Source: Thermococcus sp. MV5
GTDB lineage: Archaea > Methanobacteriota_B > Thermococci > Thermococcales > Thermococcaceae
DNA length: 24,000 nt
Assembly: GCF_012027425.1 (NCBI RefSeq)
Contig: NZ_SNUE01000004.1
Span: forward strand, 113,887-137,886
Direction: 5' to 3'
Shown here: positions 5,078 to 22,836 of the stretch, piece by piece
Numbering within the stretch: the first letter of the stretch is position 1
How the letters are laid out: the number at the start of each line of letters is the position of its first letter
Translations under genes and position numbers: made by a program
Notes under the pieces: generated by a model
Databases searched by the model: none
The model's input: only the letters and a program-made list of their open reading frames with translations
Told to the model about the DNA's origin: nothing

Positions 5078-5124
5078 TGAGTCTGGAGCCCCCTGAGTGA
5101 TGAGGAAGTTTCGCGGGGCTGACC
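5071..5124 (+). ncRNA. Candidate archaeal C/D-box sRNA (2'-O-methylation guide)
   Basis: The layout is GG-AUGAUGA (C, 5074-5080), a 12-nt guide, CUGA (D', 5093-5096), 3 nt, AUGAGGA (degenerate C', 5100-5106; alternatively GUGAUGA at 5097-5103), a 12-nt guide, then CUGA (D, 5119-5122)-CC. A terminal GG/CC closing pair is present. The element fills the 50-nt gap between two CDSs. Confidence 0.55.
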
Positions 5125-5127: not shown

Positions 5128-5406
5128 ATGATAAAAAGAATCCTCTGTAAGGACCTCTATCAGGAAATAGAGAGACTTGAACGTTCTATTATTGAGCTTG
5201 AAGAAGAAATAATTGAGTTAAAGACTCAACTTAACATGAAAACAGAAGAAGCTACTAGTCTTTACATTGAGAACCAGAGCCTAAGGCACAAAATAGAAAG
5301 ACTAGAAAAAACACACAACCAGCTCATTGAAATGCTCAAGAAGATGAAAATACCCTTTGTAGTAATTGATGAGGACGAATTCAAGGATATAGAAGTTAAC
5401 AAATAG
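5128..5406 (+). CDS. Small coiled-coil protein, function unknown
   Basis: A 92-aa ORF with strong heptad character (LERSIIELEEEIIELKTQL and LRHKIERLEKTHNQLIEML). It is co-directional with its neighbours. The SD is weak. Confidence 0.5.
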   Translation: MIKRILCKDLYQEIERLERSIIELEEEIIELKTQLNMKTEEATSLYIENQSLRHKIERLEKTHNQLIEMLKKMKIPFVVIDEDEFKDIEVNK

Positions 5407-8246: not shown

Positions 8247-8627
8247 TTGGAGGGTTTTAAAATTAAGATAAAAGCTCTCACCAATGAGATAATTGAAATC
8301 TCAGAAATGATGGGATTTAAGGCCGTAAAGGAGCTCTCTACTAGAGATGGTGCCCGAATAGATTTAGCTATTCTGAAAGAAAACGAAAAAATCCTAGCAA
8401 TTGAATTCGAAAATTCCTATAAATGGATAAAGCAGAGAGTTCTTTACAACACAATAAAAGCCCATAGAGATGGATTCAACAGGCTTTGGATCGTATATCC
8501 CTTCAACAATAAACCCCTAAAAAATAGCTGGGTTGGAAGCTTTATAGAGGAACTTGGAGTAGAAATCGAAGTTATTCATCCTAAAGAGATTGGAAAAAAA
8601 CTAAAAGAATTTTTAAAATCACTATAA
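8247..8627 (+). CDS. Hypothetical protein, possibly restriction-endonuclease-like (PD-(D/E)xK-type) fold
   Basis: A 126-aa ORF. The pattern NEIIEISEMMGF...RIDLAIL...ILAIEFENSYK resembles the E...D...ExK core of Hjc-like nucleases, but the canonical K is displaced. The start is uncertain: the TTG at 8247 overlaps a GGAGG box, and the first ATG is at 8307. Confidence 0.55.
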   Translation: MEGFKIKIKALTNEIIEISEMMGFKAVKELSTRDGARIDLAILKENEKILAIEFENSYKWIKQRVLYNTIKAHRDGFNRLWIVYPFNNKPLKNSWVGSFIEELGVEIEVIHPKEIGKKLKEFLKSL

Positions 8628-9389
8628 TCCCGTGGGATTATCAATAAACACAGTTTTAACCTCAAATTTCTCTCTTAAGAGGGGCATAAGGGCCTTAACT
8701 CCAAGAGTTTCAGTTGCATAGTGTCCAGCAGCAATAACGCTGAGCCTTCCTTCTTTGGCCTTGTGATAATCATCGTGTAAAAATTCGCCGGTTATGAAGA
8801 GATCCATCCTCTTCTCAATAGCCTCGGGTATAGCAAAGCCTCCCCGACCGCTTACAACGGCAAGGGTTTTTATTTCCTCAACCCCGAATTCATAAGCCTT
8901 TACATAATCTACCTTCAGTTTCTCTACAAGAATTTGAGCTATTAAAGGAAGAGGCTTTGGCTCCTTAAACTCCGCCATGTACCCAATGCTTAAGCCATTG
9001 TACTCTCCGAAGGATTCTTTGGGCTCCAAGTCCAAAAGCTTCAAAAGTTGAGCGTTATTGCCAACCTCTGGATGGACATCGAGGGGGAGGTGAGCGGCGT
9101 AAAGGTTTATTTCATTTTCAAGAAGAAACTTGAGTCTCTTCTGCACGAGCCCTCTAACGTACTCTATCCCTCCCCATATTAAGCCGTGATGAACTATCAA
9201 CATATCTGCTCCTAGAGCCTTAGCTTTCACAAAGGTATCCATGCAGGCATCGACTGCAAAGGCAATCTTTTCTACTTCTTCTTTCCCCTCAACTTGCAGT
9301 CCGTTGCGGGATTTATCGGGAAAAGCATTTATGTCTAGGTATGCATCAAGGAATGCCACAATCTCATCTTTGAGTACCATTTTCTTCAC
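8622..9389 (-). CDS. Nif3-like dinuclear metal centre protein (NIF3/YbgI family)
   Basis: Family signatures are present: NGLQVEG, LIVHHGLIWGG, YAAHLPLD and GHYATE. GAGGTGA-N5-ATG lies upstream. Confidence 0.9.
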   Translation of the reverse strand: MKKMVLKDEIVAFLDAYLDINAFPDKSRNGLQVEGKEEVEKIAFAVDACMDTFVKAKALGADMLIVHHGLIWGGIEYVRGLVQKRLKFLLENEINLYAAHLPLDVHPEVGNNAQLLKLLDLEPKESFGEYNGLSIGYMAEFKEPKPLPLIAQILVEKLKVDYVKAYEFGVEEIKTLAVVSGRGGFAIPEAIEKRMDLFITGEFLHDDYHKAKEGRLSVIAAGHYATETLGVKALMPLLREKFEVKTVFIDNPTGL

Positions 9390-9820
9390 CTCTTAATAAT
9401 TGCTTTTAACATGTTTAAATGTTTTTCATAATACTCGACAATTATCTAAAATCTACCAACTATAGCCGAAAATTTTAAATACAGAAATGTAAAAGTTCCT
9501 ATTTGGTGAAACCACATGAACAAAGTAGGACAAAACCTATACGAAATTTTCGGAGAAGTTATAGCAGAACACGACTTTCTAAAAGCATTTTTAATTACAG
9601 GCATATCAGCATTTTTAATGTACTTCAGCGCTTGAATTGTTTGAGCCTCTCGTGGTTAATTTTATTCCAGATTACTGCCGTTGCTTGGGCCAACTCGAAA
9701 AGGATTCTTTCTTGACCCTTTGAGGGCTGGAGTTTTACCGTTACCGAACGCTTCATTTTAAAGTATGGTATAGATTTTAAGCTTTAAAAAGTATCTCTTT
9801 CCCACTCAACAGCTTAATCC

Positions 9821-9873
9821 TTCGAACACTTTACCCCGCCCTAAAGGGCGAGGTTTGAGAAGAGTGTCAAAAG
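9821..9873. repeat. Dispersed hairpin repeat, copy A
   Basis: The hairpin is ACCCCGCCC (9833-9841), TAAA loop, GGGCGAGGT (9846-9854). A conserved tail TTTGAGAAGAGTGTCAAAAG follows. It aligns with copies at 15340, 16014 and 16992. Confidence 0.7.
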
Positions 9874-10742
9874 CCAAAATACTTGCACTGCTGGCAATAT
9901 TCCCCTTTGCAATGCTTATTCAAGGACTCAGAGGATTGTATGGACAATCAGCCTTCATAAGTATCTTCTTGGCTATTACTATAGGCCCAATACTCTACGA
10001 GCTTTTAACCCTAATCTCTCCAAATAACCACCGCCTAAAGCGCGAGGATTATGCACGGATTAAGCTCGTAAAGACTGGAAAGATTTCACTAAACCCCCTT
10101 CACCATCTCACAAAAGCTGAAGTTACTCTTTCATCGGTCTTAGCTGGATTAAGTAGCATCCTAGCAACTTTCATGAGTCCCGTTGGATTAACGGTTCTCT
10201 TCGGCGATCTCACAAAGGAAAGCCAAAAAGACGAGCTTAAGGGATCTCTCATGGCATATGCAGTGAGAGACGCTATAAAGAACGCTACTTACATTGGAGG
10301 AACGTTGATACCCCTTATAGCATTAGGAGTTCCCACTGGTCCAATGTCCGCTGGTCCAGCACATCCATTCTTTGCTGAACTCGCAGCATTTGGAGGAGCC
10401 ACACCGAGAGATGTCCTACTCCAGAGGTATTCAACCCCAACCATAATGCTTGTAACAATTTATGCAACTATATTTGCCGCATTCCTTGCATACTTCATAT
10501 TGATCAAGTACTCAAAGCAATTAACTAGGTTTGTCTTCAAAAAAGTGCCTGCAGAAGCATTGTATGCTATATTCTTAGCAATAGTACTGGTGTTAGCATA
10601 CAATGACGCAGGAATTGCAGGAATCTTTGGTTCAATCCTAGTGGGCCTTATCTCAGCGACATTTGTTAGAAACGGTGTCTCAATTGGAATACTCTTCATG
10701 GTGCTAGTTGCTGCACCATATCTTGTAGGATTGCTCTTTTGA
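9855..10742 (+). CDS. Polytopic membrane protein, possibly a TctA/DUF112-like transporter, probably 5'-truncated or disrupted
   Basis: A 295-aa hydrophobic ORF with several predicted TM helices and a GGTLIPLIALGVPTGPMSAGP segment. It starts at a TTG inside repeat copy A with no SD. A promoter, SD and ATG for the same frame lie 339 nt upstream at 9516, but five stops intervene. Confidence 0.55.
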   Translation: MRRVSKAKILALLAIFPFAMLIQGLRGLYGQSAFISIFLAITIGPILYELLTLISPNNHRLKREDYARIKLVKTGKISLNPLHHLTKAEVTLSSVLAGLSSILATFMSPVGLTVLFGDLTKESQKDELKGSLMAYAVRDAIKNATYIGGTLIPLIALGVPTGPMSAGPAHPFFAELAAFGGATPRDVLLQRYSTPTIMLVTIYATIFAAFLAYFILIKYSKQLTRFVFKKVPAEALYAIFLAIVLVLAYNDAGIAGIFGSILVGLISATFVRNGVSIGILFMVLVAAPYLVGLLF

Positions 10743-10826
10743 GGCACTTTGCTTCCCTTTATTTTATTGCACAAAAACTTTTAAGCTTCCCACTTTTTTT
10801 CCTAAGTGAGCTGCAAGGTGAGAAGC

Positions 10827-12590
10827 ATGGAAGAAAAATATCAAAAAGCCTGTGAAGAAATTGCAAAGGTCTTAATAAGTGGCGAGATTAAAGATAGGGA
10901 TGAGCTTAACAAATTTAAGGTAAAAATCGCGAGAAAATACCATCTAAGCAAACTTCCAACTAATTCGGACATTCTTAGAGTGATGAATAAAGAGGATAGA
11001 GAGAAATTCAAGGACTTCCTCAAAAAGAAACCAACCCGTACAATAAGCGGTGTGGCCGTTGTTGCTATGATGACTAAACCCTTCCCCTGTCCCCATGGTA
11101 GATGTATCTATTGCCCAGGAGGTCCAAGTGAAGGTTCTCCTCAAAGTTATACTGGAAAAGAGCCTTCTGCTCTTAGAGCTCTCCAAAATGTTTACCATCC
11201 TTACCTCATAATGATAAATCGCCTCAAGCAACTCTACGATATAGGTCACGATATCGATAAAGTAGAAGTCATAATCCAGGGTGGAACCTTCCCTGCAGTT
11301 GATCTAGATTACCAAGAATGGTTCATTAAAGAGGCCTTCAAAGCTATGAATGACTTTCCACATTTCAAAGACATAGAAAACCTTGAGGAAAAGATAAGGA
11401 AGGCAGTTCTCTTTGGAAATATTGATGAAGATCCACTCTTTAAAGCAGCTTGGAAAAGAACACACAAGAAACCTTACTACTATCTCGAAGAGGAGCAGCG
11501 AAAAAATGAAAGAGCAAAGGTCAGAATGGTTGGATTAACAATAGAAACTAGACCCGATTGGGCCATGGAGAAACACATTGACAGAATGCTCAAACTCGGT
11601 ACCACAAGAGTTGAACTTGGAGTTCAGACGGTTTTTAACTTCATCTATGAGAGGGTTAAGAGAGGCCACACCGTTGAGGACACAATTAGAGCAACTCAGT
11701 TACTCAAAGACGCTGGCCTTAAAATCAACTACCATATGATGCCCGGCCTGCCAGGGAGTAGTTTTGAAAGAGATTTGGAGTCATTTAAGATTATATTTGA
11801 AGACGATCGGTTTAGGCCAGACATGCTCAAGATTTACCCTACTCTGGTTACAAGAGATACTCTCCTCTATAAATGGTATAAAGAAGGCAAGTACAGACCT
11901 TATACAACTGAAAAAGCCGTAGAGCTCCTAGTTGAAGTTTATAAACTCCTTCCAAAATGGGTTAGGATTATGAGAATTCAGAGGGATATACCTGTACAAC
12001 TCGTGGAAGCTGGAGTAAAACATTCTAATTTGGGCCAACTTGTGTTTAACGAACTTGTGAAAAGAGGAATAAAACCAAAAGAAATTCGCTTTAGAGAAGT
12101 GGGACACCAAATGCAGAAATTTGGAATAGAGCCTGAAGTGGAACACATCAAACTTTTGAGAGAGGATTATGAGGCAAGTGAAGGTCACGAGATATTCCTA
12201 AGCTTTGAAGATGTGAAGAATGACATCTTAATTGGTTTCATAAGGCTTAGAATTCCAAGTGAAAAGGCCCATAGAAAAGAAATTAACTGCTGCCCATCTG
12301 CAATAGTCAGGGAACTCCATGTCTATGGACCGCTTGTGCCAATAGGAGGAAGACCAAAATATGAATGGCAACACAGGGGATATGGAAAGGAACTTCTAGC
12401 TGAAGCGGAGAGAATAGCCTTTGAAGAATTTGATAGAAAGAAAATGCTTATCATAAGTGGTGTTGGCGTTAGAGGGTACTACAGAAAGTTCGGCTACCGC
12501 AAGGATGGGCCCTATGTAAGCAAGAGACTTGATAAGGGATATGCCAACTTCATAAAAAGCAGAGAGTTCGATGGGCACTTGAATACCTAA
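10827..12590 (+). CDS. elp3: Elp3-type radical SAM/GNAT tRNA U34 modification enzyme
   Basis: It has the CPHGRCIYCPGG radical-SAM cluster motif and a C-terminal GNAT domain (QHRGYGKELLAEAERIA). I chose the start at 10827 because of GGTGA-N5-ATG. The ORF track starts at a GTG at 10806. Confidence 0.9.
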   Translation: MEEKYQKACEEIAKVLISGEIKDRDELNKFKVKIARKYHLSKLPTNSDILRVMNKEDREKFKDFLKKKPTRTISGVAVVAMMTKPFPCPHGRCIYCPGGPSEGSPQSYTGKEPSALRALQNVYHPYLIMINRLKQLYDIGHDIDKVEVIIQGGTFPAVDLDYQEWFIKEAFKAMNDFPHFKDIENLEEKIRKAVLFGNIDEDPLFKAAWKRTHKKPYYYLEEEQRKNERAKVRMVGLTIETRPDWAMEKHIDRMLKLGTTRVELGVQTVFNFIYERVKRGHTVEDTIRATQLLKDAGLKINYHMMPGLPGSSFERDLESFKIIFEDDRFRPDMLKIYPTLVTRDTLLYKWYKEGKYRPYTTEKAVELLVEVYKLLPKWVRIMRIQRDIPVQLVEAGVKHSNLGQLVFNELVKRGIKPKEIRFREVGHQMQKFGIEPEVEHIKLLREDYEASEGHEIFLSFEDVKNDILIGFIRLRIPSEKAHRKEINCCPSAIVRELHVYGPLVPIGGRPKYEWQHRGYGKELLAEAERIAFEEFDRKKMLIISGVGVRGYYRKFGYRKDGPYVSKRLDKGYANFIKSREFDGHLNT

Positions 12591-12591
12591 T

Positions 12592-14274
12592 TCAGTTTAT
12601 GACTATTTTAACTCCATTAATTTCCCTTTCTTTTTTCTCGGTTTTCTCAAATGTGAGTTTTTCCCAGTTAAATCTATAAGAGGAGCCATTAATATTAGCA
12701 ATCCAGTTATTGGGGTCTAAAATTATCATTATGGGTCTTTCCTTGGTTTTAACCTCCAGGGAAGATGAGCCATTCACAAGGATTCTCTTCGTTATGTTCT
12801 CTGCCAGTGTTACAATTCCTACTTCAAGAGGCATCGTAAAGCTGTTTTCTTCAGTGATGTTAAGTATTAGAGTATAATAGCCACTATTTTGGGTAATTTT
12901 CAAGCTGGAGACTGTGAAGTTTGGATAATCTGCTGTATAAAACCATTCTTCGAAAAACCAGTTCAAATCTCGATTCGTCATATTCTCAAAGATTTCCTTG
13001 ATCAGAGTTAAAGTTTCTTCGGTTTTGGTGCAATCCTTAACATGGCAAATCTTGAGGAGCTCTCTGAGTCCTTCGAAAAATGTTTCATTTCCTACAACAA
13101 ACTGAAGGGAACGGAAAATAAAACCCCCCCGATAGTAAAGGTTGGCCGTTATGTCCGTCATCCGAGACATCTCGATATTCCTCATTTCAGCTATTGGTGT
13201 CCTCTTTTTTGAACTAAAGCAAAAAGCCTCCCATTTATCTAAAGTATCAAGTGTCAAGTTATTCATGGAAATTGATGTATATGTAGCAAGAGATTCATCT
13301 AAAAGTCCTAACTCCGCATACATCCCAAACCAGTTATGAGCAACCTCATGAGGAATGACACTCTTGAATTGTGTCCCCAAAGCTCCACCATAGAGACCGC
13401 AGCCCTCATATTCACTTCTATGTCCTTTGAAGCGTATGTAGATCAGCTCACGATAGGGATATGGAATAAGCTGGGATGAATAGATTTTAAGGATTTTTGC
13501 AAGCTCATCAACAACCCATTCTCCCTCATCAGTAAGAGCTACCACATCTACATTTTTTCCATCAATCACGATGTTCTTCTTGTAAATATTCCACCTTCCA
13601 AGAAGGACGTAAAATCTTCCACCATCAGTGTAAAAAGCACCCTTTTCTGGAAGAAGTGGCTTGTATTTGTTGTTTGGGAGCTTTAAAATACCAGCAAGCG
13701 TGTAGCTCGCTGGGTAAGATTCCACGTTGATTGTGACGTTCCCATCTATCTTAGGGATCAGCATATAAGCCTCCGGAGGAAGATAGAAGTAATCTTCAGT
13801 TGATTTCATGTGCCACTCAATTATATCTCTCTCCTCAATGTCTAAGAGAGGCTGATACCGCAAAGTGTAAACTATTTTAATCCGCTGAACTCTTTCAATT
13901 GGAGTTACATTGAGGAGCAAAACACCATATTTCCCATCATAAAACGCTTCCATGGTTGCTTTTGCACCGTAGACCTCGATTTTCTTAATGTTCATATTCA
14001 GAATAGAGAAGTTTTCGAAGAAGAAAGTAACAAGAGTCGGAGATGTCAAAGAGAGCTCAACCTCTTGAATCCCACTAATGAGTGCATTCCAACCATCAAA
14101 AGTTATCTCTAAAGAAATACTGCTATTACCATTAATAGGCCCCTTGCTTCTTTCAAAAAGGAGCTTAGCATTGTCTGTTTTTGAAAATTGGAACTTATCA
14201 AATGCATATGGGGGGCTGATACACATGACTATGAAAGCTATTAAAAACACTACTACAACAGAACGTGCTTTCAT
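12592..14274 (-). CDS. Secreted or membrane-anchored zinc metallopeptidase (gluzincin, M1-like HEXXH)
   Basis: It has an N-terminal hydrophobic signal/anchor (MKARSVVVVFLIAFIVMCISPPYA) and an HEVAHNWFG...E motif. There is no SD, and a TATA box lies about 25 nt upstream, which suggests a leaderless transcript. Confidence 0.7.
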   Translation of the reverse strand: MKARSVVVVFLIAFIVMCISPPYAFDKFQFSKTDNAKLLFERSKGPINGNSSISLEITFDGWNALISGIQEVELSLTSPTLVTFFFENFSILNMNIKKIEVYGAKATMEAFYDGKYGVLLLNVTPIERVQRIKIVYTLRYQPLLDIEERDIIEWHMKSTEDYFYLPPEAYMLIPKIDGNVTINVESYPASYTLAGILKLPNNKYKPLLPEKGAFYTDGGRFYVLLGRWNIYKKNIVIDGKNVDVVALTDEGEWVVDELAKILKIYSSQLIPYPYRELIYIRFKGHRSEYEGCGLYGGALGTQFKSVIPHEVAHNWFGMYAELGLLDESLATYTSISMNNLTLDTLDKWEAFCFSSKKRTPIAEMRNIEMSRMTDITANLYYRGGFIFRSLQFVVGNETFFEGLRELLKICHVKDCTKTEETLTLIKEIFENMTNRDLNWFFEEWFYTADYPNFTVSSLKITQNSGYYTLILNITEENSFTMPLEVGIVTLAENITKRILVNGSSSLEVKTKERPIMIILDPNNWIANINGSSYRFNWEKLTFEKTEKKEREINGVKIVIN

Positions 14275-14298
14275 ATTTTTACTTTTTATTCCGAGAGA

Positions 14299-14306
14299 TT
14301 TAAAAG
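14299..14306. promoter_or_regulatory. Single TATA-like box (TTTAAAAG) shared by divergent genes 64 bp apart
   Basis: It is the only strongly TATA-like element in the 14275-14338 spacer. It lies about 25 nt from the ATG at 14274 (-) and about 33 nt from the GTG at 14339 (+). Confidence 0.4.
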
Positions 14307-14338
14307 TTTTGGGAATAGCTTTTCATGAGGGTTGAAAA

Positions 14339-14860
14339 GTGCGATTCAAACCAAGACCATTAACGAGTGATGTAAACTTTGAATGTAAATTCTGCCTTGA
14401 CTGTTGTCGGGGTAGATTTATCTATTTAACCCTTTTAGATATTGAGAAAATAATAAACCACGGGCATGACCCACAAGAATTCATGCTTTTAACTGCAGAA
14501 GGGGAAGGAATCCGCTTCGTACTTTCATACAGAGAATGGGATCTGGGGTGCATCTTCCACGATCCAGAAACAGGGAAATGCAAAATCCACGATTACAACC
14601 CTTTAGTCTGCCAGATCTATCCGTTCATGGTTTCTCACAAACCACTTGGCATTGAAGGAGAGGAACCGTTTGAGTACAGGGGCGAAAAGTTTTGGCTTTA
14701 TTATGACGAGAATTGCCCTGGACTCGGAGAGGGAGAAAACGTTATAACAAGAGAACAGATAGCCGAGCTCGGCATGAAATTCCACAGAGAGTTTGAGAAA
14801 ACTGATTTAGATAGTTTAAACAGACTTCTGAATGGTGGCGAGAATGGAGCTCCAGTATAG
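14339..14860 (+). CDS. YkgJ-family cysteine-cluster protein (CxxCxxCC, putative Zn/Fe-S)
   Basis: It has the N-terminal CKFCLDCC motif and a later GCIFHDPETGKCKIHDYNPLVCQIYPF motif. The start is GTG. Confidence 0.75.
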   Translation: MRFKPRPLTSDVNFECKFCLDCCRGRFIYLTLLDIEKIINHGHDPQEFMLLTAEGEGIRFVLSYREWDLGCIFHDPETGKCKIHDYNPLVCQIYPFMVSHKPLGIEGEEPFEYRGEKFWLYYDENCPGLGEGENVITREQIAELGMKFHREFEKTDLDSLNRLLNGGENGAPV

Positions 14861-15344
14861 AAAAACATTACCCCAAGAGCTTGAACTAATAACAAAAGAA
14901 GCAGAAAAGTTTGGAGAGCTGAAACATAAATTCTTTGGTGTAGTCGAAGGAAAATTTATAGACATTTATGCTGTAAATGAGGAGATTTGGAGAGAAATAG
15001 AGGACTTAAAAGTACCTTCTTACTCTTTTGGAACATTTGTTGGGACAATTAAAAAGGATAAGAACCTCGTTGAGAAATTCTACCCTAACATCGAGTTCTT
15101 TTACTTTGTAGAGATAAAGAAAAACTATGCAATTTTGAAAGCCAAACCGGCATTTCTATTTACTACAGGAAAGGATGTTCCAAAGAATGGGGTTAGGGAA
15201 TACGTCTGGCAGGGCAGCAAAAAAATAGTCGTTATGAACGAAGAAGGTATAATTCTTGGACTAGGCTTAATAAACCCCCAAAGCGAAAGAAAATTTATCA
15301 AAAATATTACCGATATAGGAGAGTTTATTCGAAGACACCGCTGA
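14844..15344 (+). CDS. nip7: Nip7-like PUA-domain RNA-binding protein (ribosome biogenesis factor homologue)
   Basis: It gives a near-collinear match to my recollection of P. abyssi Nip7 (KEAEKFGEL, VVEGKF.DIYAVNEE, NLVEKFYPN, FLFTTGKDVPK, WQGSKK and DIGEFIRR). The 166 aa obtained from GGTGG-N5-ATG match the length of that homologue. Confidence 0.75.
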   Translation: MELQYRKTLPQELELITKEAEKFGELKHKFFGVVEGKFIDIYAVNEEIWREIEDLKVPSYSFGTFVGTIKKDKNLVEKFYPNIEFFYFVEIKKNYAILKAKPAFLFTTGKDVPKNGVREYVWQGSKKIVVMNEEGIILGLGLINPQSERKFIKNITDIGEFIRRHR

Positions 15345-15395
15345 CATCTTCTCTATCCTAACGGCAAGGCTTTCGGAGAAAAAGGCAATAAAAAC
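15340..15395. repeat. Dispersed hairpin repeat, copy D (degenerate)
   Basis: GCTGACATCTTCTCTATCCTAACGGCAAGGCTTTCGGAGAAAAAGGCAATAAAAAC aligns with copy B over its full length. It overlaps the nip7 stop codon. Confidence 0.5.
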
Positions 15396-15423
15396 ACGAC
15401 CTCAGGATATAATAAAGGCGCGA

Positions 15424-15948
15424 TTATTCTTTCTTCAGCACTACGAACTCTTTGTAGTCCATGACCTTTTTGAAACCCTTCTTCAGATAGTAGCTATAAG
15501 CTTCGAGATTTGGAAACGTTATTATATAAGGCTCTTTTTTCAATTCTCTTAAACGTTCCACAGCAAATTCAAGAAGCTGTGAACCATAGCCTTTACCTTT
15601 GTATGCAGGATCCACCATGAAAAACTCTATAAGACCCGTCTTTTCACCTTTGATATCCTCTGGCACCCACCACACATCTTTGCCATCAAGAGTGTAAACG
15701 AGAGCTACGGTACCAATGACTTTCTCTTCTTTAGTTCCTAAATACAGTTCATCAAACTCTTTTCCAAGTCTAAACTCAAGAAATGGTCCATATACTCTCC
15801 TAAAACCCTCAAAATCATCTATGCTTGGCTTATCTTCCACCCATTCAAGGGCTGGATATGCTCCGTTGGTTCCTTGATAGACGCGGAAAACAAACTTTAC
15901 TAACTCATCTTTAAGTTCTAATGGATTTTTAACCTTAGTTATTCTCAT
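15424..15948 (-). CDS. GNAT-family N-acetyltransferase
   Basis: It has the acetyl-CoA binding motif region FMVDPAYKGKGYGSQLLEFAVERL and a YYLKKGFKKV tail. GGTGAG lies upstream. Confidence 0.85.
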   Translation of the reverse strand: MRITKVKNPLELKDELVKFVFRVYQGTNGAYPALEWVEDKPSIDDFEGFRRVYGPFLEFRLGKEFDELYLGTKEEKVIGTVALVYTLDGKDVWWVPEDIKGEKTGLIEFFMVDPAYKGKGYGSQLLEFAVERLRELKKEPYIITFPNLEAYSYYLKKGFKKVMDYKEFVVLKKE

Positions 15949-16013
15949 GCTCTCACCATACCAGAATTAAGAAAAAGTGGCTAATAAATCCAACGGATGA
16001 GACAGAAAAATTA

Positions 16014-16067
16014 GCTGACCTCCTCCCTACCCTAAAGGGTGAGGCTTGGAGAAGAAAAGTCAAAAAG
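16014..16067. repeat. Dispersed hairpin repeat, copy B
   Basis: The hairpin is CCCTACCC (16025-16032), TAAA loop, GGGTGAGG (16037-16044). The tail is CTTGGAGAAGAAAAGTCAAAAAG. The stem differs from copy A by compensatory changes. Confidence 0.7.
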
Positions 16068-16105
16068 TTAATTAGGGGATAAAATAATTAAGAAATGGTG
16101 GTATT

Positions 16106-16582
16106 ATGAATGAACTTGAAGCTTTGGGAGTAGCTTTAGAAGTAGAAAAAGCCGAATTAAAGTTTTATATTGATATGGCTAAAAAAGCAAGTGATGAAAA
16201 GGCCAAAAAGATGTTTCTCTTCTTGGCACATGAAGAGGCCGAGCACTGGGATATTTTTGAGAAAAATTTTATCAATAAACTTGTAGAAAAGTGTGAACTT
16301 CCCTCCGTTACCAAAGAAATGTTTGAAACGTTAATTCCAAAATATGAAGGAGAACTAAGTGAAGTCAAGGCTGTGGAAATAGGGATGGAACAGGAAAAAA
16401 GGACCTGGGAATTTTATGAGAAAGCTGCAGAAGAAGTTAAGGACAAAAATTTGAGAAAAATATTCGATGAACTTGCAAAAGTTGAAAAATCTCATTATGA
16501 ACTTCTTAAGGCCCAATACGATTCCGTTATGAAAACTGGCATCTGGATGGATTATCAGGACTTCAGTCTTGAGGTGGATTAG
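16106..16582 (+). CDS. Rubrerythrin-like ferritin-fold diiron protein without rubredoxin domain (COG1633-type)
   Basis: It has a four-helix ligand set: EKAELKFY, HEEAEH, EQEKRTWEFY and VEKSH (E, ExxH, E, ExxH). GGTGGT lies upstream of the ATG. Confidence 0.8.
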   Translation: MNELEALGVALEVEKAELKFYIDMAKKASDEKAKKMFLFLAHEEAEHWDIFEKNFINKLVEKCELPSVTKEMFETLIPKYEGELSEVKAVEIGMEQEKRTWEFYEKAAEEVKDKNLRKIFDELAKVEKSHYELLKAQYDSVMKTGIWMDYQDFSLEVD

Positions 16583-16631
16583 TCCAAGAGGGGATTTTCG
16601 AAAAGAACATGTAAATTTCTAGAGAAAAAAC

Positions 16632-16655
16632 TTATTTAGTTTGAAAACTAAATAA
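16632..16655. promoter_or_regulatory. Near-perfect 24-bp palindrome TTATTTAGTTT-GA-AAACTAAATAA
   Basis: 11-bp perfect arms at 16632-16642 and 16645-16655. It ends 5 nt before the SD of the gene that starts at 16670. Confidence 0.4.
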
Positions 16656-16669
16656 ACTTGGTGATAAAT

Positions 16670-16981
16670 ATGTTGGGATTGAACCCTATTTCGATATCTC
16701 GTGAAAAATCCCTATCAAAAGGAGAAATTGCCCAGGCCCTAAGATGGGCTATCATCGCAGAACTAGATGCCATAACATTCTATGAACAATTTGCAGCATT
16801 AATAGAAGATGAAAACATAAAGAAAGTATTTTTAGACGTAGCAAAGGAAGAGAAAGCCCACGTAGGAGAGTTCATGGCCCTTCTGCTTAATCTAGATCCC
16901 GAACAGCTCAATGAACTTAAGGATGGTTTTGAAGAAGTTGAGGAATTAACGGGAATTAAAACGGAAATAAATTCCCCATAG
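16670..16981 (+). CDS. Two-helix half-ferritin of the encapsulated-ferritin (EncFtn)-like type
   Basis: A 103-aa protein. AELDAITFYEQ and AKEEKAHVGEF match the E...Y / EEKxH pattern I recall for EncFtn (ELEAVDWYDQ / DEEKEH). There is only one E + ExxH half-site per chain. GGTGAT-N4-ATG defines the start. Confidence 0.7.
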   Translation: MLGLNPISISREKSLSKGEIAQALRWAIIAELDAITFYEQFAALIEDENIKKVFLDVAKEEKAHVGEFMALLLNLDPEQLNELKDGFEEVEELTGIKTEINSP

Positions 16982-16991
16982 AGAGAAACAA

Positions 16992-17046
16992 GCCTGACTT
17001 TTCCTTACACTAAAGGACAGAGCTTTCAAAAGAAAAATGTAAAGCA
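16992..17046. repeat. Dispersed hairpin repeat, copy C (degenerate)
   Basis: GCCTGACTTTTCCTTACACTAAAGGACAGAGCTTTCAAAAGAAAAATGTAAAGCA aligns with copies A, B and D. It abuts the point where homology of the truncated binding-protein gene ends. Confidence 0.55.
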
Positions 17047-17740
17047 CCTTTATCGTCCTCAAGTATCTTAAGACCAAAGAGGTCAACACGGGCATCTGTA
17101 GTGTAAGCGGAAATTGCATCTACTTGGTCGTTCTTTATAGCTTCATACATTAATGTGGGTTCATCTGCTTAACATCCCCAAAGGTGAAACCATATACCTC
17201 TTTAATCCTCGGCAACCCGTCTGGTCTCGTAGCAAATTCTGGATCTGTACCTAAAACCATGTTGGGAGCATATGGAGCTAAATCACTCAACTTTTGAAGG
17301 CCATTTTTCTCAGCAAATTCTTTCTTCACAGCTATCGCATAGTCGTCCCTAAAACCCAATTTTACAACCGTTAAAACACCATCACGACTGAGCATTTCCT
17401 CTTTACTCTTTTCATATACATAATCAGGATCCCAGTTTTCTGGAGGATTAAGTTTAAGAATATTATTGTATGCTGTTCCAGTGTACTCCACATAAATATG
17501 AATTTGGCCCTTCTTCAATGCTTCATAATTTACCAGTGTTCCACCAAGCCCCTCTTTTACCTCAGCCTTATAGCCGTTATTCTCCAAGAGAAGAGCTATC
17601 ATATGGGCCAAAATGTACTGTTCATTGAATGGTTTAGAGCCAATAACTATCGTGGGGACTTCTTCTTTTTCACTTATGCAACCACTTAGAAAAGAAACCA
17701 AAACCAAGCTTCCAACAATCAAAGCAGCTAATTTGTGCAT
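17040..17740 (-). pseudogene. Glycine-betaine/osmoprotectant-type ABC substrate-binding lipoprotein, frameshifted and 3'-truncated
   Basis: It has a lipobox signal ([21 protein letters not shown]) and an OpuAC-like body. The reading frame stops at 17150 (KQMNPH*), but a different frame continues as [39 protein letters not shown]. The shift maps to the GGG run at 17157-17159. The expected last 50 or so residues are absent, and no permease or ATPase gene is nearby. Confidence 0.65.
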
Positions 17741-17819
17741 TCTTACACACCTCTACTATATTGTTCGAGCATTTTAATAAACTTTTCGAAAAATTAAAAG
17801 TAAAAGTATAGAGTTCGAA

Positions 17820-18629
17820 CTAACCTAGCATAGAATCCAAGAAGAGCATTACATAGAAGCCAATGAAGAATCCAAGAGTTACATAGAGCTCATTTTCCTC
17901 CCTTTTGTATATCTCCGGGATCATTTCTTTCACAGTTACGTAAAGCATTGCTCCTCCTGCTAGGCCCAAACCGTAAGGAAGGAGATTGCGAAATGTTGTA
18001 AAGAAGAGTGCACCAACAAGCACCATGACCATTTCCGCTACACCACTCAAGCTCCCCATCAGAATTGGTTGGAGTCGTTTCTTTTGGAGAGTTGCCAAGG
18101 GAAGAGAAATCACCGCTCCCTCTGGAAAATCTTGAATACCTATCGCTATGGCTGTGATAATACCGGTCCTTAGATCAAAGACTATTGAAGTGCCCACTGC
18201 AAGGCCTTCAGGGAGATTGTGAATTACAACAGCAAGAACTATGAGCCAAATCACTCTGAGCCTATCCTTCAGCTCTTTTGGACCTTCGTACCCCCGAACT
18301 AAGTGCTCATGTGGGATAAACCTATCCAACACATAAATAAACAGTACTCCTGAAAGTATTCCAATTCCTGCTGGAGTAAAACTATTTGTAAATTCAATCG
18401 CTGGCAGTATTAAGCTGGTGAAACTAGCCACAATCATAACTCCAGCAGCAAAAGATAAGCTCACATCAATTCCCCACTCTGGCAGCTTATTGGAGAATAT
18501 AGCCAACAAAGAGCCCAGTGAAGTCATTATTGCCACAAAGAGACCTGCATAGAAAGAGACCACTACGAGATTGCCCCCCGATATATCGAGCAAGTATTCC
18601 CCAAGTCTTGCAATAGAGCTCTCTAGCAC
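17820..18629 (-). CDS. zupT: ZIP-family divalent metal transporter (ZupT/GufA-like)
   Basis: It has HNLPEGLAVG and QDFPEGAVISLPL motifs and multiple TM helices. I chose the GTG start at 18629 because of AGGTGGTT-N4-GTG. The ORF track starts at 18680 and would overlap the upstream gene. Confidence 0.8.
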   Translation of the reverse strand: MLESSIARLGEYLLDISGGNLVVVSFYAGLFVAIMTSLGSLLAIFSNKLPEWGIDVSLSFAAGVMIVASFTSLILPAIEFTNSFTPAGIGILSGVLFIYVLDRFIPHEHLVRGYEGPKELKDRLRVIWLIVLAVVIHNLPEGLAVGTSIVFDLRTGIITAIAIGIQDFPEGAVISLPLATLQKKRLQPILMGSLSGVAEMVMVLVGALFFTTFRNLLPYGLGLAGGAMLYVTVKEMIPEIYKREENELYVTLGFFIGFYVMLFLDSMLG

Positions 18630-18666
18630 TTTTAACCACCTGATAAATAAAATTGTCAAAAAAGTA

Positions 18667-19188
18667 TTACGGACCAACATGCATCATTTGGGAGTACATT
18701 TCCCAGTCAAGGAGAAGCTCATACTCTGTCTTCAGAATGAAGTAGTGCGTATTTTCCATAGAAGCAAGATACCTAAGAAGACCTTTTTTAGCATTGTCTT
18801 GCGTCATATCTTCAAGCTTTGAGTAAAACTCTTTAGCTATTCTTTCGGCCTCCATTGCCCAACGAATAAGCTCTAATATATCGTGAACATCTTTAACTTT
18901 CTCTAAAACCGGTTTCAACTCAGGGCCTACATGTTCTTTCGGAAATACAATATCTTCTCCCGGGAAGGACTGAGCATAAAGCTTTCTCAAAAACTCTTCA
19001 TGCTTTTCCTCTTCACCTGCAAGAAACTCAAGCTTCTTTTTTAAGGTTTCTACACCCACATTCTCAGCCATGCTTCTATAAAACTCCTTTGCCCCAATTT
19101 CAGCCTTTATAGCCATTCCCAAAAGTTCCCTAAGGGAGAATTCATTTACCCTCTCAAGAGGAATTCCCATATCCATATTAACCACCAT
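18667..19188 (-). CDS. Rubrerythrin-like ferritin-fold diiron protein without rubredoxin domain
   Basis: The ligand helices are KAEIGAKEFY, GEEEKH, EAERIAKEFY and MENTH. GAGGTGAT-N4-ATG defines the start at 19188. Confidence 0.8.
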   Translation of the reverse strand: MVVNMDMGIPLERVNEFSLRELLGMAIKAEIGAKEFYRSMAENVGVETLKKKLEFLAGEEEKHEEFLRKLYAQSFPGEDIVFPKEHVGPELKPVLEKVKDVHDILELIRWAMEAERIAKEFYSKLEDMTQDNAKKGLLRYLASMENTHYFILKTEYELLLDWEMYSQMMHVGP

Positions 19189-19326
19189 TTGTATCACCTC
19201 ATTTCAAAAACCTGATATTATCTAATAGAACCTCCTTTGTACTAAAACCTTTCCATTTGATAAAGTTTTTAAATAGCAAAAAAACTATTCACGGGCATAC
19301 TGAGATTCTATCTCGAGATTGCTAAA

Positions 19327-19920
19327 TCAGATTCTAGCTACATAACGCAATCTCACGAGAGTATAAATCCAAATGACGAGCGACAATAAATAGATTATTG
19401 GAGCCATTGTTCTAGTAGATTGGAGTGCATTGAGCCAAATGAAGACCACAAATATCCAAGATGAAATTTTTGCGAGTGTTTTGTAATTTTCTGGCGTTCT
19501 AACGTATCCTGCTATTGCATTAATGAGGAGAATCAATGAGACTGAAGATCCTAATTCAATAACATGAAACCCCTTATTCTCAACCAAGACCGTAGAACCC
19601 ATTATAAGCACTATTTGCAAGAGCATTGTCCAAGTTGCTTTCACAAGCTTACTCTCGGAGAGAGAATATGCTATCATGGCAGGGCCTAAAAGAATTGCAA
19701 TACTTATAATGGCCTCGTGAACCTCTAACATAGTGGCAATAAACCCAAGTGAGGTTAAAATACCTCCAAGAAGAATATAGCGAGAGAGTCGCCTACCCCT
19801 GAGCCTTACTTTTTCTATTTGCTGTGATAAGTTCCATGTGAGAAAAATTCCTACAAGCACCAAAATACCACCAATACTCATGAAGATTTGATATTGGTCA
19901 ATCATGTTCCCATCATCCAC
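19327..19920 (-). CDS. Uncharacterised integral membrane protein (about 6 TM helices)
   Basis: A hydrophobic 197-aa ORF with no recognisable motif. A TATAAACA box at + strand 19935-19942 lies close to the start, so a near-leaderless transcript that initiates at the ATG at 19905 is an alternative. Confidence 0.6.
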   Translation of the reverse strand: MDDGNMIDQYQIFMSIGGILVLVGIFLTWNLSQQIEKVRLRGRRLSRYILLGGILTSLGFIATMLEVHEAIISIAILLGPAMIAYSLSESKLVKATWTMLLQIVLIMGSTVLVENKGFHVIELGSSVSLILLINAIAGYVRTPENYKTLAKISSWIFVVFIWLNALQSTRTMAPIIYLLSLVIWIYTLVRLRYVARI

Positions 19921-19970
19921 GTCTTTGACTATTATGTTTATACAGAAAAGTAAATAAATCTTCCGAATAT

Positions 19971-19992
19971 ATTGAAAAAATTTGAGAAAAAA
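19971..19992 (-). terminator. Oligo-T tract terminator candidate after the rubredoxin-SOR operon
   Basis: On the - strand, two T6 runs (TTTTTTCTCAAATTTTTT) begin directly after the SOR stop codon. This is the usual form of archaeal intrinsic termination signals. Confidence 0.5.
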
Positions 19993-20340
19993 TCACTCAA
20001 ATACAACCTCGTTTTCCCAGAGGCCATGGATGTTACAATAGCTTAAGGCATAAAGCTTCCCTTTTTTAACCGTCTTAAAGAAGAATTTAGCTATGGGCTC
20101 TGTTAAGGGATCTGTGTGGTTTGCAAATTCTGCCCTGCCAACAAGTATAGGAAAGTTCTCCCCCTCTGGGTGGAAGTAAAGTTCGATCCAGACTATATGA
20201 TGTTCGGGAGTATTTGGATGTGGAATTTCCTTACCAACTTGAACTTTTACTTTTACCAAATCCCCTTCTTTTTTGTACTCTATAACAGGTACATGTTTTT
20301 CTCCTTTCCAATCCCCACTTCTTATAGTTCCACTAATCAT
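19993..20340 (-). CDS. sor: Superoxide reductase (1Fe-SOR, neelaredoxin type)
   Basis: MISGTIRSGDWKGEKHVPVIEY...IPHPNTPEHHIVWIELYF...LYALSYCNIHGLWENEV is nearly identical in pattern to P. furiosus SOR, including the His4-Cys ligands. GAGGTGGT-N4-ATG defines the start. Confidence 0.95.
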   Translation of the reverse strand: MISGTIRSGDWKGEKHVPVIEYKKEGDLVKVKVQVGKEIPHPNTPEHHIVWIELYFHPEGENFPILVGRAEFANHTDPLTEPIAKFFFKTVKKGKLYALSYCNIHGLWENEVVFE

Positions 20341-20350
20341 ATCAACCACC

Positions 20351-20515
20351 TCAATCCTCTATCTTCTCGAACATATCTTTTGGGGCCCCACAGAGCGGGC
20401 ATACCCAATCATCCGGTATTTCCTCAAATTTCGTTCCTGGATTAACCCCACTGTCTGGATCCCCTGCTTCTTCATCATATATATACCCACATACTATACA
20501 TTTCCACTTTGCCAT
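20351..20515 (-). CDS. rub: Rubredoxin
   Basis: [54 protein letters not shown] is 54 aa with two CxxCG knuckles. An AGGTGGTG SD is present. The 82-aa ORF in the track is an upstream over-extension. Confidence 0.95.
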
Positions 20516-20591
20516 GTTTCCACCACCTAATATTACTAGGTCGACCTTAAAAAGTTTGTGTTCCAAACCAATATGGTTAAAAATTGAAAAG

Positions 20592-21107
20592 TCATTCAAA
20601 CACTACAAACTTTTCTCTCGAAGCCCCACACACTGGACAGTATTCAGGAGCCTCATCTATAACTGTGTATCCACATACTGGGCATATGTAGACCCTCTTT
20701 ATTTCAAGATCTTTTTTCTGTTCTGCCAGTTCTTTGGCTTCCTTGTAAAGCTCTGCATGAATTTTTTCTGCCTCCAAAGCATAATGAGTACTCCTCACAG
20801 CCTCTTTCTCACCTTGAAGCTCAGCAGTTGCTTTGTAAACTGGATACATCTCTTCGACTTCAAAAGTTTCTCCATCTATTGCTATCTGAAGGTTGCTAGG
20901 AGTGTCCTTAATGTTGCCAAGTGCTTGATAGTGATTTTTAGCATGTACAAGCTCAGCAAAAGCTATTGCTCTAAAGAGCTTTGCTATATTCGGGAATCCT
21001 TCCCTCTCAGCAACATCCGCAAAAATTAGATATCTCATATGCGCTTGGCTCTCCCCTGCATATGCATCTTCAAGAAACTTCTTTGTCATTTTCCTTTCAA
21101 CCACCAT
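20592..21107 (-). CDS. rbr: Rubrerythrin (diiron domain plus C-terminal rubredoxin-like domain)
   Basis: [27 protein letters not shown]...CPVCGYTV...[15 protein letters not shown] is 171 aa and collinear with my recollection of P. furiosus rubrerythrin. GGGGTGAT-N4-ATG defines the start. The 208-aa ORF in the track over-extends into the NROR gene. Confidence 0.95.
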
Positions 21108-21137
21108 TGCTATCACCCCAAAAGGCATTATTAATTC

Positions 21138-21165
21138 GATAGAGAAATATAAAAGGTTTTCTATC
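21138..21165 (-). promoter_or_regulatory. rbr promoter: TATA box flanked by an inverted repeat
   Basis: GATAGAGAAA (21138-21147), TATAAAAGG (21148-21156), then TTTTCTATC (21157-21165). The TATA box lies about 41-49 nt upstream of the rbr ATG. Confidence 0.45.
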
Positions 21166-21192
21166 CGAAACTTATAAAGAGGGGCGAAAATA

Positions 21193-22284
21193 TTAAAGTT
21201 CGTTAACGCTAACCCCAAGTTTTATTTTCCTTTCACATTTCAATGCTCTTTTCACATCCTTAACGATAACTGCTCCAACAACCCGTTCTCCTTTTAGGAA
21301 TACTTTTGTTTTATCATCTACCCACTTCCCATTCCCCTTTATTTCTCCTATGATAGCTATGGGGAAGTCACCAAACTTAAAAACGGTAGAACGAAACTCA
21401 AAAGCATATCTATCCTCTTCACCTCGTATGAGATTTGCAAGAACTCTCGCGTGTCCCATTGCACCTTTAGCGGTTCCACAGATTATTCCATTATATTCTG
21501 CACAGTCTCCAATGGCATAAACATCCCGAGCCGAGGTCCTGAATTTATCATCGATCAAAACCCCTCGACCCGCATGAATGCCACTCTTCAGAGCAAGTTC
21601 TTTGTTCGGGATTATCCCTATTGCACAGATTTTTACTCTTCCCTCTATATACCCCTTCTCAGTGAAAACACCCTCTTTATCAGCTTTTAATACATTGGCA
21701 TTTAAATAGAATTCCACGCCTTTAGATGCAAGCTCTTCTATTATCAGTTTTGTAAGCTCATTATCAAGACCAAGAAGAGTACTTCCTCTATGAACAAGTT
21801 TAACCCTATAGCCAGCTTTTGATAAGTTGCCCGCCAGCTCAAGCCCTATAAACCCACCTCCAACGATAAGGACATCACCCTCATTTTCAACTAGTTGCTT
21901 TATTTTCTCTGCATCTTTTAATGTTCTGAGTGGCATTAGATTCTCTTTTCCTTCTATCATTGGCTCCCTAGCCCTAGCTCCTGTGGCTATTACGAGAAGA
22001 TCATAAGGAAGTTCTCCCGCACTCGTTATCAGTTTTTTACGGCCTCTATCTATAACCTCCGCTTTAGTCCCCAACCTTAGCTCTATCCCTTTATTTTCAT
22101 ACCACTCAAACGAATAAGGAAAAAGTTTCTCCTTTTTTACAGTCCCTGCTATGTAATGACTCAACATAGGCTTGGTATAGTAAGGAAGATCCTCCTGCTC
22201 TATGATAGTTATCTCGTATTCGTCGGAAAGTTGCTTTGCTAATTCAGCTCCCCCCGGGCCATTTCCAACAATCAAAAATCCCAT
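21193..22284 (-). CDS. NAD(P)H:rubredoxin oxidoreductase (FAD-dependent pyridine nucleotide-disulfide oxidoreductase family)
   Basis: It has the FAD fingerprint [12 protein letters not shown], the NAD(P)H fingerprint [13 protein letters not shown] and the AIGDCAE motif. It is 363 aa. The genomic context with rubredoxin supports the NROR assignment. Confidence 0.85.
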
Positions 22285-22293
22285 AAAATTCCC

Positions 22294-22836
22294 TCATGGC
22301 TGAGTTCTAGGTTTATAATATATCTCCACCTGATTAAATATTACATGCGCTGGTATCTCAGCATATTCGGGCTTTCCTCTCATCAGCCCTTCAAGGTACT
22401 CTTTATGGGCTTCAATAGCTTTATAGTGTGCTCTTTCCTGTGTAGCTAGGAAATCAAAGAGGGTTTTATGTTCGGGAAGCTTTTGAGCCAAAAGAGTGTA
22501 AACTCTTTCAGCGGTCTTTTCATTCATGAGGGCTGTTTTCAATGCCTCCACTAAGTTTCCGAGAGTTACGATATTAACCGTGCTCTCTACAAGGGGAATA
22601 TTTTCTGGGACTGTATACTCTTTATCCCCAAAGATATCATCATAGAGGTTCAAGAGAAGTGTCTTATGGACCCGTTCGGCATTTGCAAGGTCTCTAAAGA
22701 ATTCTCCTATCAGCTCACCCTTCCCTTCAGCAAGTTTAAGATAGAATTGCCTCGCATCTTCCTCAGATGCAATTGCATATCCTAAAATCTCCTTTTCAGA
22801 GAGTTTCTCCAACTTTTTAACGATTTCTTCTTCCAT
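22294..22836 (-). CDS. Rubrerythrin-like ferritin-fold diiron protein without rubredoxin domain
   Basis: The ligand helices are ASEEDARQFY, NAERVH, NEKTAERVY and TQERAH. GGGGTAAT-N4-ATG favours a start at 22836; the ORF track starts at 22842. Its stop lies 9 nt before the NROR start, so the two are probably co-transcribed. Confidence 0.8.
   Translation of the reverse strand: MEEEIVKKLEKLSEKEILGYAIASEEDARQFYLKLAEGKGELIGEFFRDLANAERVHKTLLLNLYDDIFGDKEYTVPENIPLVESTVNIVTLGNLVEALKTALMNEKTAERVYTLLAQKLPEHKTLFDFLATQERAHYKAIEAHKEYLEGLMRGKPEYAEIPAHVIFNQVEIYYKPRTQP

Follow-up and report, generated by a model that had tools for sequence, protein, structure and literature searches.

Dispersed hairpin repeats in a Thermococcus genome as probable relics of an ISTsi3-like IS200/IS605 transposon lineage

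Introduction

Insertion sequences (IS) of the IS1341 group of the IS200/IS605 family, among them ISTsi3, carry subterminal hairpins at both ends and insert 3' of TTAC or TGAC with no target duplication; the paradigm is IS608 of Helicobacter pylori. Here, we analyse four short repeats, copies A to D, in 24,000 nucleotides (nt) of Thermococcus sp. MV5 (contig NZ_SNUE01000004.1, positions 113,887 to 137,886; this whole stretch is called the window below). We conclude that they are probably debris of a single ISTsi3-like, tnpB-only (IS1341-type) IS200/IS605 lineage, in which copy A retains a left end (LE) and a stump of tnpB, and copies B, C and D are single-hairpin solos that are likely to be immobile scars of collapsed elements.

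IS608 inserts 3' of TTAC and is cleaved 19 nt 5' of its left hairpin and 10 nt 3' of its right one. Directly 5' of each hairpin foot stands a guide tetranucleotide (AAAG on the left) that pairs with the cleavage site of its own end, and two hairpins, one for each TnpA monomer, are required for the transpososome (PMC3201880). Several kinds of sequence are related to such ends: the PATEs of haloarchaea and MITE-like derivatives are gene-less IS200/IS605 ends, dispersed and intergenic, and the REP sequences of bacterial REP/RAYT systems are single short hairpins related to IS200/IS605 ends, with a conserved 5' tetranucleotide and tens of dispersed copies. The Rfam families HgcC (RF00062) and sot0042 (RF02656), which include sRk48 and sRk52 of P. 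abyssi, are tnpB 3'-end RNAs, now understood as omega-RNA/reRNA guide scaffolds. HgcC has been tied to the right-end tetraloop of IS1341-type tnpB, to sense-overlapping transcripts and to PATEs (Gomes-Filho 2015), and repeat-derived RNAs of P. abyssi resemble the 3' ends of orphan OrfB genes (Phok 2011).

Results

The initial annotation of the window had proposed a co-oriented dispersed repeat, and this family is real: copies A, B, C and D all lie where it had placed them and share one orientation (Table 1). An exact 19-mer, CCCTAAAGGGYGAGGYTTG, is common to A and B, and none of 100 shuffles contains one. The pairwise local scores of A-B (38) and B-D (36) stand far above the null (12 +/- 3), and those of A-C and B-C reach 22-24 (p ~0.006); the local alignment of A with D alone is not significant. 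Membership was decided with a covariance model (R1) of 34 distinct external metagenomic copies, with which both strands were scanned with filters off; the test is decisive because no copy from the window entered the model. Its four best matches in the window are B, C, A and D, all on the minus strand, which is the informative one for every copy. The fifth-ranked match has 12.7 bits (E ~0.5), and no fifth copy was found in the window on either strand. Four copies would share one orientation by chance with a probability of 0.125, and on other contigs R1 copies occur in mixed orientations; the direction of replication cannot be read from 24 kb either, and the shared orientation is not taken here as a sign of strand-specific insertion.

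Copy A is physically joined to a transposon gene. On the minus strand it runs from the target TTGAC (9866-9870) through a 12-nt flank, ACTCTTCTCAAA, the hairpin CCTCGCCCTTTAGGGCGGGG and an LE-type tail, TAAAGTGTTCGAAGGATTAAGC, to a promoter-like box, TTTTTAAAG, and ATG, the box and the tnpB start lying ~75 nt downstream of the copy. The truncated tnpB was detected by tblastn with T. sibiricus TnpB, to which 36 of 42 residues are identical (86%, E=1e-17); the full T. sibiricus gene encodes 432 amino acids (aa) and is named ISTsi3 orfB. Upstream of that gene stand GCTGAC, TTTTCTCTTTTTCAAG, a hairpin, TACAGTCTTCAAAAGATCAGC and then a promoter-like box, and the minus strand of copy A aligns with this arrangement over its full length. 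Altogether, copy A aligns with the LEs of six full elements, every one of which starts directly after TGAC or TTGAC; the LEs that align with it or share its layout include those of T. sibiricus and of the contigs L129, L130, L231, L233 and L234. By these alignments, copy A is the left end of an ISTsi3-like element that was later truncated. Neither a complete element nor an intact tnpB was found in the window, where A stops after codon 42.

The same locus bears the mark of a deletion. Against L122, the closest relative, window 8623-9632 and 9865-16977 align by blastn, and window 9633-9864 stands in place of 620 bp (L122 2206-2825) that include the 5' third of a TctA-type gene. The TctA-type transporter gene of the window (9855-10742, plus strand) has 295 codons versus 452 in the sister lineage (L122 2089-3703), and the small gene upstream of it is likewise cut, to 70 aa from 84. 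Since the missing 620 bp are replaced by a 232-bp IS relic, a deletion came after the IS insertion, took away the rest of the element along with this host DNA, and probably inactivated the transporter.

Copies B, C and D have another layout: a TTGAC or TTTAC target is followed by an LE flank of 14-16 nt, a single hairpin and a right-end (RE) tail of 10 nt, AGGAGGTCAG, which is decayed in C and D. They are chimeras, with an LE flank and an RE tail placed around one hairpin. The minus strand of B reads, in full, TTGAC, TTTTCTTCTCCAAG, the hairpin CCTCACCCTTTAGGGTAGGG and AGGAGGTCAG, followed by CTAA. Its insertion point, 3' of TTGAC (16059-16063), falls between a GNAT and a rubrerythrin gene, in their divergent promoter region. 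The comparison set comprised syntenic contigs of a sister lineage (L121-L123, ~90% DNA identity) and T. paralvinellae-like and T. sibiricus loci; the rubrerythrin of the window shares 96% identity with a metagenomic protein and 81% with its T. paralvinellae counterpart. In L121, L122 and L123 the B site is empty, with a 46-column gap after TTGAC and no target duplication: the filled site reads TTGAC, element, CTAA, and the empty one TTGAC, CTA.

Copy C follows TTTAC (17039-17043) and does not differ from the external consensus in its 5' flank. It lies inside a window-specific 325-bp segment (16978-17302) that is not alignable with L121 6919-7692. Between the EncFtn-like and OpuAC genes the two lineages are unrelated: the window has copy C, and L121 has a 127-aa ABC-ATPase fragment and an EncFtn-like gene 7 codons longer. 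Copy D ends on the plus strand in ...GTCAG, which overlaps the TGA stop of a NIP7-like gene (14832-15344); L121-L123 keep its tail half and are missing 25 nt of its 5' half. The positions of the four copies relative to genes differ, with one in a promoter region, two at 3' ends and one at a gene-disruption site.

Table 1. Features of the window. R1, score of the covariance model built from external copies.
Feature	Coordinates	Strand	Sequence or content	Score
ISTsi3-like IS200/IS605 (IS1341-type) relic	9633-9865	-	LE, promoter-like TTTTTAAAG box and 5' stump of tnpB
Truncated tnpB	9631-9756	-	first 42 codons only (MKRSVTVKLQPSKGQERILFELAQATAVIWNKINHERLKQFK)
Copy A hairpin, inside the IS relic	9834-9853	-	LE imperfect palindrome CCTCGCCC TTTA GGGCGGGG	R1 25.6 bits (E=6.6e-4, hairpin only)
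Copy B, 44-nt single-hairpin solo	16015-16058	-	LE flank TTTTCTTCTCCAAG; hairpin CCTCACCC TTTA GGGTAGGG (16025-16044); RE tail AGGAGGTCAG	R1 62.5 bits (E=4.5e-12)
Copy C, decayed solo	16994-17038	-	ATTTTTCTTTTGAAAG + CTCTGTCC TTTA GTGTAAGG + AAAAGTCAG	R1 26.6 bits (E=4e-4)
Copy D, oldest and most decayed solo	15341-15385	-	(CC)TTTTTCTCCGAAAG + CCTTGCCG TTA GGATAGAG + AAGATGTCAG	R1 24.0 bits (E=1.5e-3)
C/D-box sRNA sR23 (RF01138)	5072-5124	+	in the 50-nt gap between open reading frames 3350-5077 and 5128-5406	70.1 bits (E=2e-15)

The hairpin itself is a transposon end of wide distribution. In a scan of one genome per species, the pattern CCYCRCCCTTTAGGGYRGGG occurred in at least 120 genome stretches (123 matches) of archaea and bacteria. 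Among the matches listed, the 20-nt hairpin CCYCRCCC TTTA GGGYRGGG was seen in Actinomycetota, Deinococcus, Pseudomonadota, Poribacteria, haloarchaea, methanogens and Thermoproteota. A long same-strand open reading frame (ORF) stops at a TAG within the hairpin loop in 11 of these 123 matches, and all five ORFs tested from those 11 encode TnpB (PF01385 and PF07282; OrfB_IS605 and the Cas12f1-like TNB domain); at several matched loci a Y1 TnpA gene is adjacent to tnpB. After the hairpin comes a tail of ~10 nt, AGGAGGTCAG in hyperthermophilic archaea and AGGATGTCAA in many bacteria and haloarchaea, and similarity ends after it. The peptide string SPFRAG, which the initial annotation had read from the hairpin as a possible tnpB frame, is not that frame: wherever this was checked, the ORF terminates as ...PAL* at the TAG of the loop.

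Eight full elements were examined (T. sibiricus, L128-L131, L231, L233 and L234), and the hairpin of the window copies is homologous to both their LE and their RE hairpins. Full relatives carry PF01385 and PF07282. In all eight, similarity stops exactly after the RE tail, which is AGGAGGTCAG or a one-base variant of it. These boundaries qualify the earlier suggestion that the repeats are right ends: it fails for A, a left end upstream of truncated tnpB, and applies in B, C and D to the tail alone. By the same token, the 'GCTGAC head' of the layout first proposed joins unlike parts, since A has its left-end tail there and B, C and D their right-end tail. The candidate identity offered at that stage, solo transposon ends or PATE- or MITE-like elements, was correct.

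Solos are also common outside the window. A metagenome scan for the solo layout gave 99 stretches, which resolved into 53 separate loci of Thermococcales type and 33 loci of a second type; T. sibiricus has one solo. The 53 loci have unique flanks on both sides, and TTAC or TGAC precedes 43 of them, against a background of 7%. The 5' flanks of solos are those found at the LEs of full elements, as in TGAC, TTTTTCTTTTTTCAAG (L233) and TGAC, ATTTTTCTTTTGCAAG (L234). The second class (L132, L140-L143 and 28 more) reads TTAC, AACTGAAAG, the hairpin CCTCGCCCTTYAGGGCGGGG and AGGAGGTCAG, extends 39 nt after TTAC, has unique flanks and always follows TTAC; its loci lie on apparently Thermoproteota-type hot-spring contigs. 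One 10.5-kb contig, L197, has five R1 matches in mixed orientation and, at 8423-8828 (plus strand), a tnpB-less LE..RE element of ~405 bp with a separate LE hairpin and a right end consisting of GTTAGAAC, hairpin and AGGAGGTCAG. Its left and right hairpins are near-identical 20-nt direct repeats, and by its layout it is a PATE-like intermediate between full elements and solos.

Guide and cleavage sequences follow the spacing of IS608 as well. In the Thermococcales solos (A/C)AAG stands directly before the hairpin, and the tail is exactly 10 nt and ends in TCAG. Among the matches listed, 55 of 78 right ends have a guide whose fourth base is complementary to the base that ends the right cleavage site, and the pairs covary (GAAT/TCAA, GAAG/TCAC, CAAG/TGAC, GAAC/TCAG). 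Genuine Thermococcales right ends combine GAAC with TCAG, whereas solos combine AAAG or CAAG with TCAG; AAAG/TCAG gives G.G, and the solo guide fits the left site TTAC/TGAC and not the right TCAG.

Folded as single-stranded DNA, copy A is the only stable copy (-10.3 kcal/mol, z=-3.8; 7 Watson-Crick pairs and 1 wobble). Copy B, with 6+1 pairs and one mismatch, folds no better than shuffles (z=-0.9), copy C has lost its hairpin (3 Watson-Crick pairs, 3 wobbles and 2 mismatches; z=-0.6), and copy D no longer folds (z=+1.0). The initial annotation had seen compensatory stem changes between A and B around a retained C/A mismatch and had argued for selection on an RNA or single-stranded DNA structure. 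One pair does change in a compensatory way (G-C to A-T), but another change is disruptive (C-G to C.A, minus strand); all three A-to-B stem substitutions are transitions, and the supposed mismatch is, on the minus strand, the standard T.G wobble of the family. Among 17 non-consensus hairpins compared, departures are mostly one-sided, and genuine double changes are few: the innermost C-G to G-C (L129 LE, L197) and G-C to A-T (B). The lost stems of C and D and the weakened stem of B argue against host-level selection on structure, and the proposal of such selection at these copies does not stand. The active transposon family conserves the structure, for the element's own machinery, whereas these four loci do not.

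At Rfam gathering thresholds none of the four copies was matched, and the sole match in the window was sR23 (Table 1). Under relaxed thresholds the minus strand of B matches HgcC (16005-16061, 22.9 bits, E=0.012) with less than half of the gathering score of 50; the aligned part is the last ~45 nt of the 130-nt model, the hairpin CcCCGcccUUuAgggCGggG and then AGGAGGUCAG, with a 70-nt internal model deletion. Copies A, C and D gave no HgcC match at relaxed thresholds. HgcC and sot0042 match the 3' ends of full Thermococcales tnpB genes with 43-44 bits (E down to 1e-8), and even there both stay under their gathering scores. By score, membership of either family is not claimable for B, nor does any of the four copies qualify as a complete small-RNA gene, the best of them covering a 3' fragment below threshold. 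The initial annotation had linked the repeats to the 3' ends of archaeal IS200/IS605 tnpB genes, with their guide-RNA scaffold and right end, and this link is borne out by the match of the B hairpin and tail to the HgcC 3' module and by the tnpB genes that stop in the hairpin loop.

Further features were noted in related elements and around the copies. The T. sibiricus right end (L127 16021-16083, minus strand) has two hairpins: the first, with the tnpB stop TGA in the loop, corresponds to the LE hairpin type in reverse complement, and the second, CCCCTCGCC ATTG GCGGGG with a bulged T, is followed by AGGAGGTCAG. Some ISTsi3-type elements have an ORF of 51-53 aa overlapping the tnpB start (MGVITISVDDEVE...KLWIKKVEEEEE; L127 17365-17526, minus strand, L129 1849-2004 and L231 549-704), which by eye looks ribbon-helix-helix-like; it is absent in L128, L130, L233, L234 and the copy A relic, and L131 keeps its last codons only. 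The sister lineage has an orphan right-end/omega-RNA-like module (L122 12675-12854 and L121 ~9772-9818, both minus strand; sot0042 30.5 bits, HgcC 26.8 bits), which ends ...AGGAGGTCAG, ACTCTCGTGAG and borders a 4.2-kb segment that the window lacks; at the equivalent place, near 19349-19372, the window has TTTAT, ACTCTCGTGAG, seemingly an unoccupied target. Window 15424-24000, around B, C and D, is a dense oxidative-stress cluster with two rubrerythrins, an EncFtn-like ferritin, a desulfoferrodoxin-type gene and NROR/flavoprotein genes assigned by synteny with L124; gene order in this region differs markedly among Thermococcus species.

Discussion

We consider it likely that the four copies are remains of one ISTsi3-like, tnpB-only lineage and that its solos are immobile. 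We infer that a full or tnpB-less element would collapse into a solo by recombination or replication slippage between its near-identical LE and RE hairpins, which are 20-nt direct repeats. Such recombination would leave exactly an LE flank, one hairpin and an RE tail, in a manner analogous to the formation of solo long terminal repeats (LTRs). The product would be immobile, because its guide (A/C)AAG fits the left TTAC/TGAC and not the right TCAG, so that the right end would not be cut. Several points weigh against this account. The collapse step is unobserved, no locus having been found that is full in one lineage and solo in another, and many solos share the same 46 nt at different loci, so that solos themselves could proliferate. 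The pattern of the metagenome scan constrained the hairpin and tail, which inflates the apparent uniformity, and the solo-to-full ratio is unreliable, since repeats break assemblies and full elements are therefore probably too rare in metagenome contigs. The right-end guide/cleavage rule comes from our own tabulation and the IS608 paradigm and is extrapolated to this element. Moreover, a search of ~700 kb of Thermococcales-type and metagenome DNA showed no Y1 transposase (TnpA), while TnpA is readily found beside hairpin-bearing tnpB in other phyla; the DNA searched offers no enzyme that could move even the full elements of this clade.

If the 44-nt single-hairpin units were themselves mobile, they would be minimal REP-like IS200/IS605 derivatives, moved or copied in trans by a TnpA- or RAYT-like Y1 enzyme encoded elsewhere, which would act on the TTAC/TGAC target, the lone hairpin and the TCAG end. 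Such mobility would account for the presence of B in the window and its clean absence, with the target restored, in three relatives, for near-identical 46-nt sequences at dozens of loci with unique flanks, and for clusters such as that of L197. The left site, guide, hairpin and right site are all kept at IS608-like distances, the preference for TTAC/TGAC is strong (43/53), and a second class of the same design recurs on the Thermoproteota-type contigs (33 loci, all after TTAC). However, target preference and clean ends are equally expected from insertion followed by collapse, solo flanks match the LEs of full elements, and C and D are simply decaying. Moreover, the IS608 transpososome requires two hairpins (PMC3201880), the solo guide misfits TCAG by the covariation of genuine right ends, and the relevant ~700 kb yielded no TnpA. 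We judge mobile units to be unlikely, and keep them in view because identical solos occur at many loci and no full-to-solo transition was observed. It is similarly doubtful that the 39-46-nt units form an undescribed REP-like minimal IS200/IS605 class amplified in trans in hyperthermophilic archaea; if they did, the Thermococcales and Thermoproteota classes, which share hairpin and tail, would be the smallest known 'peel and paste' units, and mobile solos would be an archaeal counterpart of bacterial REPs.

It is quite improbable that the host has recruited the copies as functional elements, be it small structured RNAs, orphan omega-RNA/HgcC-like genes, terminators or regulatory hairpins of untranslated regions. 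All four are intergenic, and B occupies a divergent promoter region; HgcC-like orphan repeats of P. abyssi are transcribed, and some bind L7Ae (Phok 2011), while overexpression of a PATE-derived RNA improved the growth of Halobacterium (Gomes-Filho 2015). Yet B, C and D hold only the last ~45 nt of the 130-nt HgcC, without the scaffold that TnpB-type guide RNAs need, and their presence varies between lineages that are ~90% identical, B being absent and D half-deleted in relatives. The stems of C and D are destroyed, B folds like shuffled sequence, and the copies differ in their positions relative to genes; we infer a lack of present function. A terminator (hairpin plus T-runs), a palindromic transcription-factor site upstream of the oxidative-stress genes and a C/D-box sRNA suggested by CTGA were each dropped on account of the homology to a transposon, the polymorphic B insertion and the decayed state of C and D. 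As an explanation of the similarity, a chance likeness between low-complexity intergenic segments has next to no probability left. The insignificant A-D alignment, the T-rich flanks and the fact that part of the D 'head' is a coding-sequence end with its stop codon would fit it, but it is refuted by the externally trained R1, which ranks exactly B, C, A and D first (E 4.5e-12 to 1.5e-3) with nothing else below E ~0.5, and by the tnpB fragment attached to A.

With the copies read as debris of an ISTsi3-like lineage, the repeats should be annotated as IS200/IS605 (ISTsi3-like) relics and not as candidate small RNAs or regulatory hairpins, and partial HgcC matches of ~20 bits become readable as right-end tails. 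The relics mark past transposon activity at sites of structural change: A coincides with the 620-bp deletion, C lies in a replaced segment, and the right-end relic of the sister lineage stands at the 4.2-kb indel. The data give the ends, the right boundary and the target TTAC/TGAC of a widespread Thermococcales TnpB element, this target being a likely target-adjacent motif (TAM) of TnpB, and they extend IS608 geometry and guide/cleavage-site covariation across both domains.

Compared with IS608, the guide is (A/C)AAG here and AAAG there, directly 5' of the hairpin foot in both, and the distance from the hairpin to the right cleavage site 3' of it is exactly 10 nt in both, the site being TCAG here and not TCAA. 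As in ISTsi3 and the IS1341 group, where the 3' end of tnpB overlaps the right-end structure, the gene is of the same type, the codons of copy A being 86% identical to ISTsi3 TnpB; in B, C and D a single hairpin stands for both ends and there is no gene, as expected of derivatives of IS200/IS605. The likeness to HgcC is confined to the B hairpin CCUCACCC UUUA GGGUAGGG and AGGAGGUCAG, the last ~45 nt on the minus strand; the scaffold of ~70-90 nt of HgcC and sot0042 is missing, the 5' half of B, C and D is LE-derived and outside these families, and copy A is unrelated to them beyond the hairpin. The orphan copy of the sister lineage (L122 12675-12854) is a fuller one.

As gene-less, dispersed and intergenic derivatives of IS200/IS605 ends, the units resemble PATEs, of which type the ~405-bp L197 element is a true example. 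PATEs keep separate left and right hairpins and extend over hundreds of bp, whereas B, C and D measure 44-45 nt; with one hairpin against two, B, C and D are not PATEs. With REPs the units share the single short hairpin, the conserved 5' tetranucleotide and the many dispersed copies. REPs usually form inverted pairs (REPINs/BIMEs), whereas the units here carry the LE-flank and RE-tail halves of a specific IS. The units cannot be called REPs, because no RAYT was found; neither a RAYT nor a TnpA gene turned up nearby or in the ~700 kb searched. Literature text searches returned nothing on the hairpin and tail strings, on ISTsi1-3 or on PATEs in hyperthermophiles, a negative that does not prove the solos undescribed and hints at most that the solo form may be new to the literature. 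Solo LTRs offer an analogy of origin only: they are what remains after direct terminal repeats recombine and the interior is deleted, and here the repeats would be the 20-nt hairpins. The four copies belong to the known IS200/IS605 family, to which they add a modestly interesting minimal architecture.

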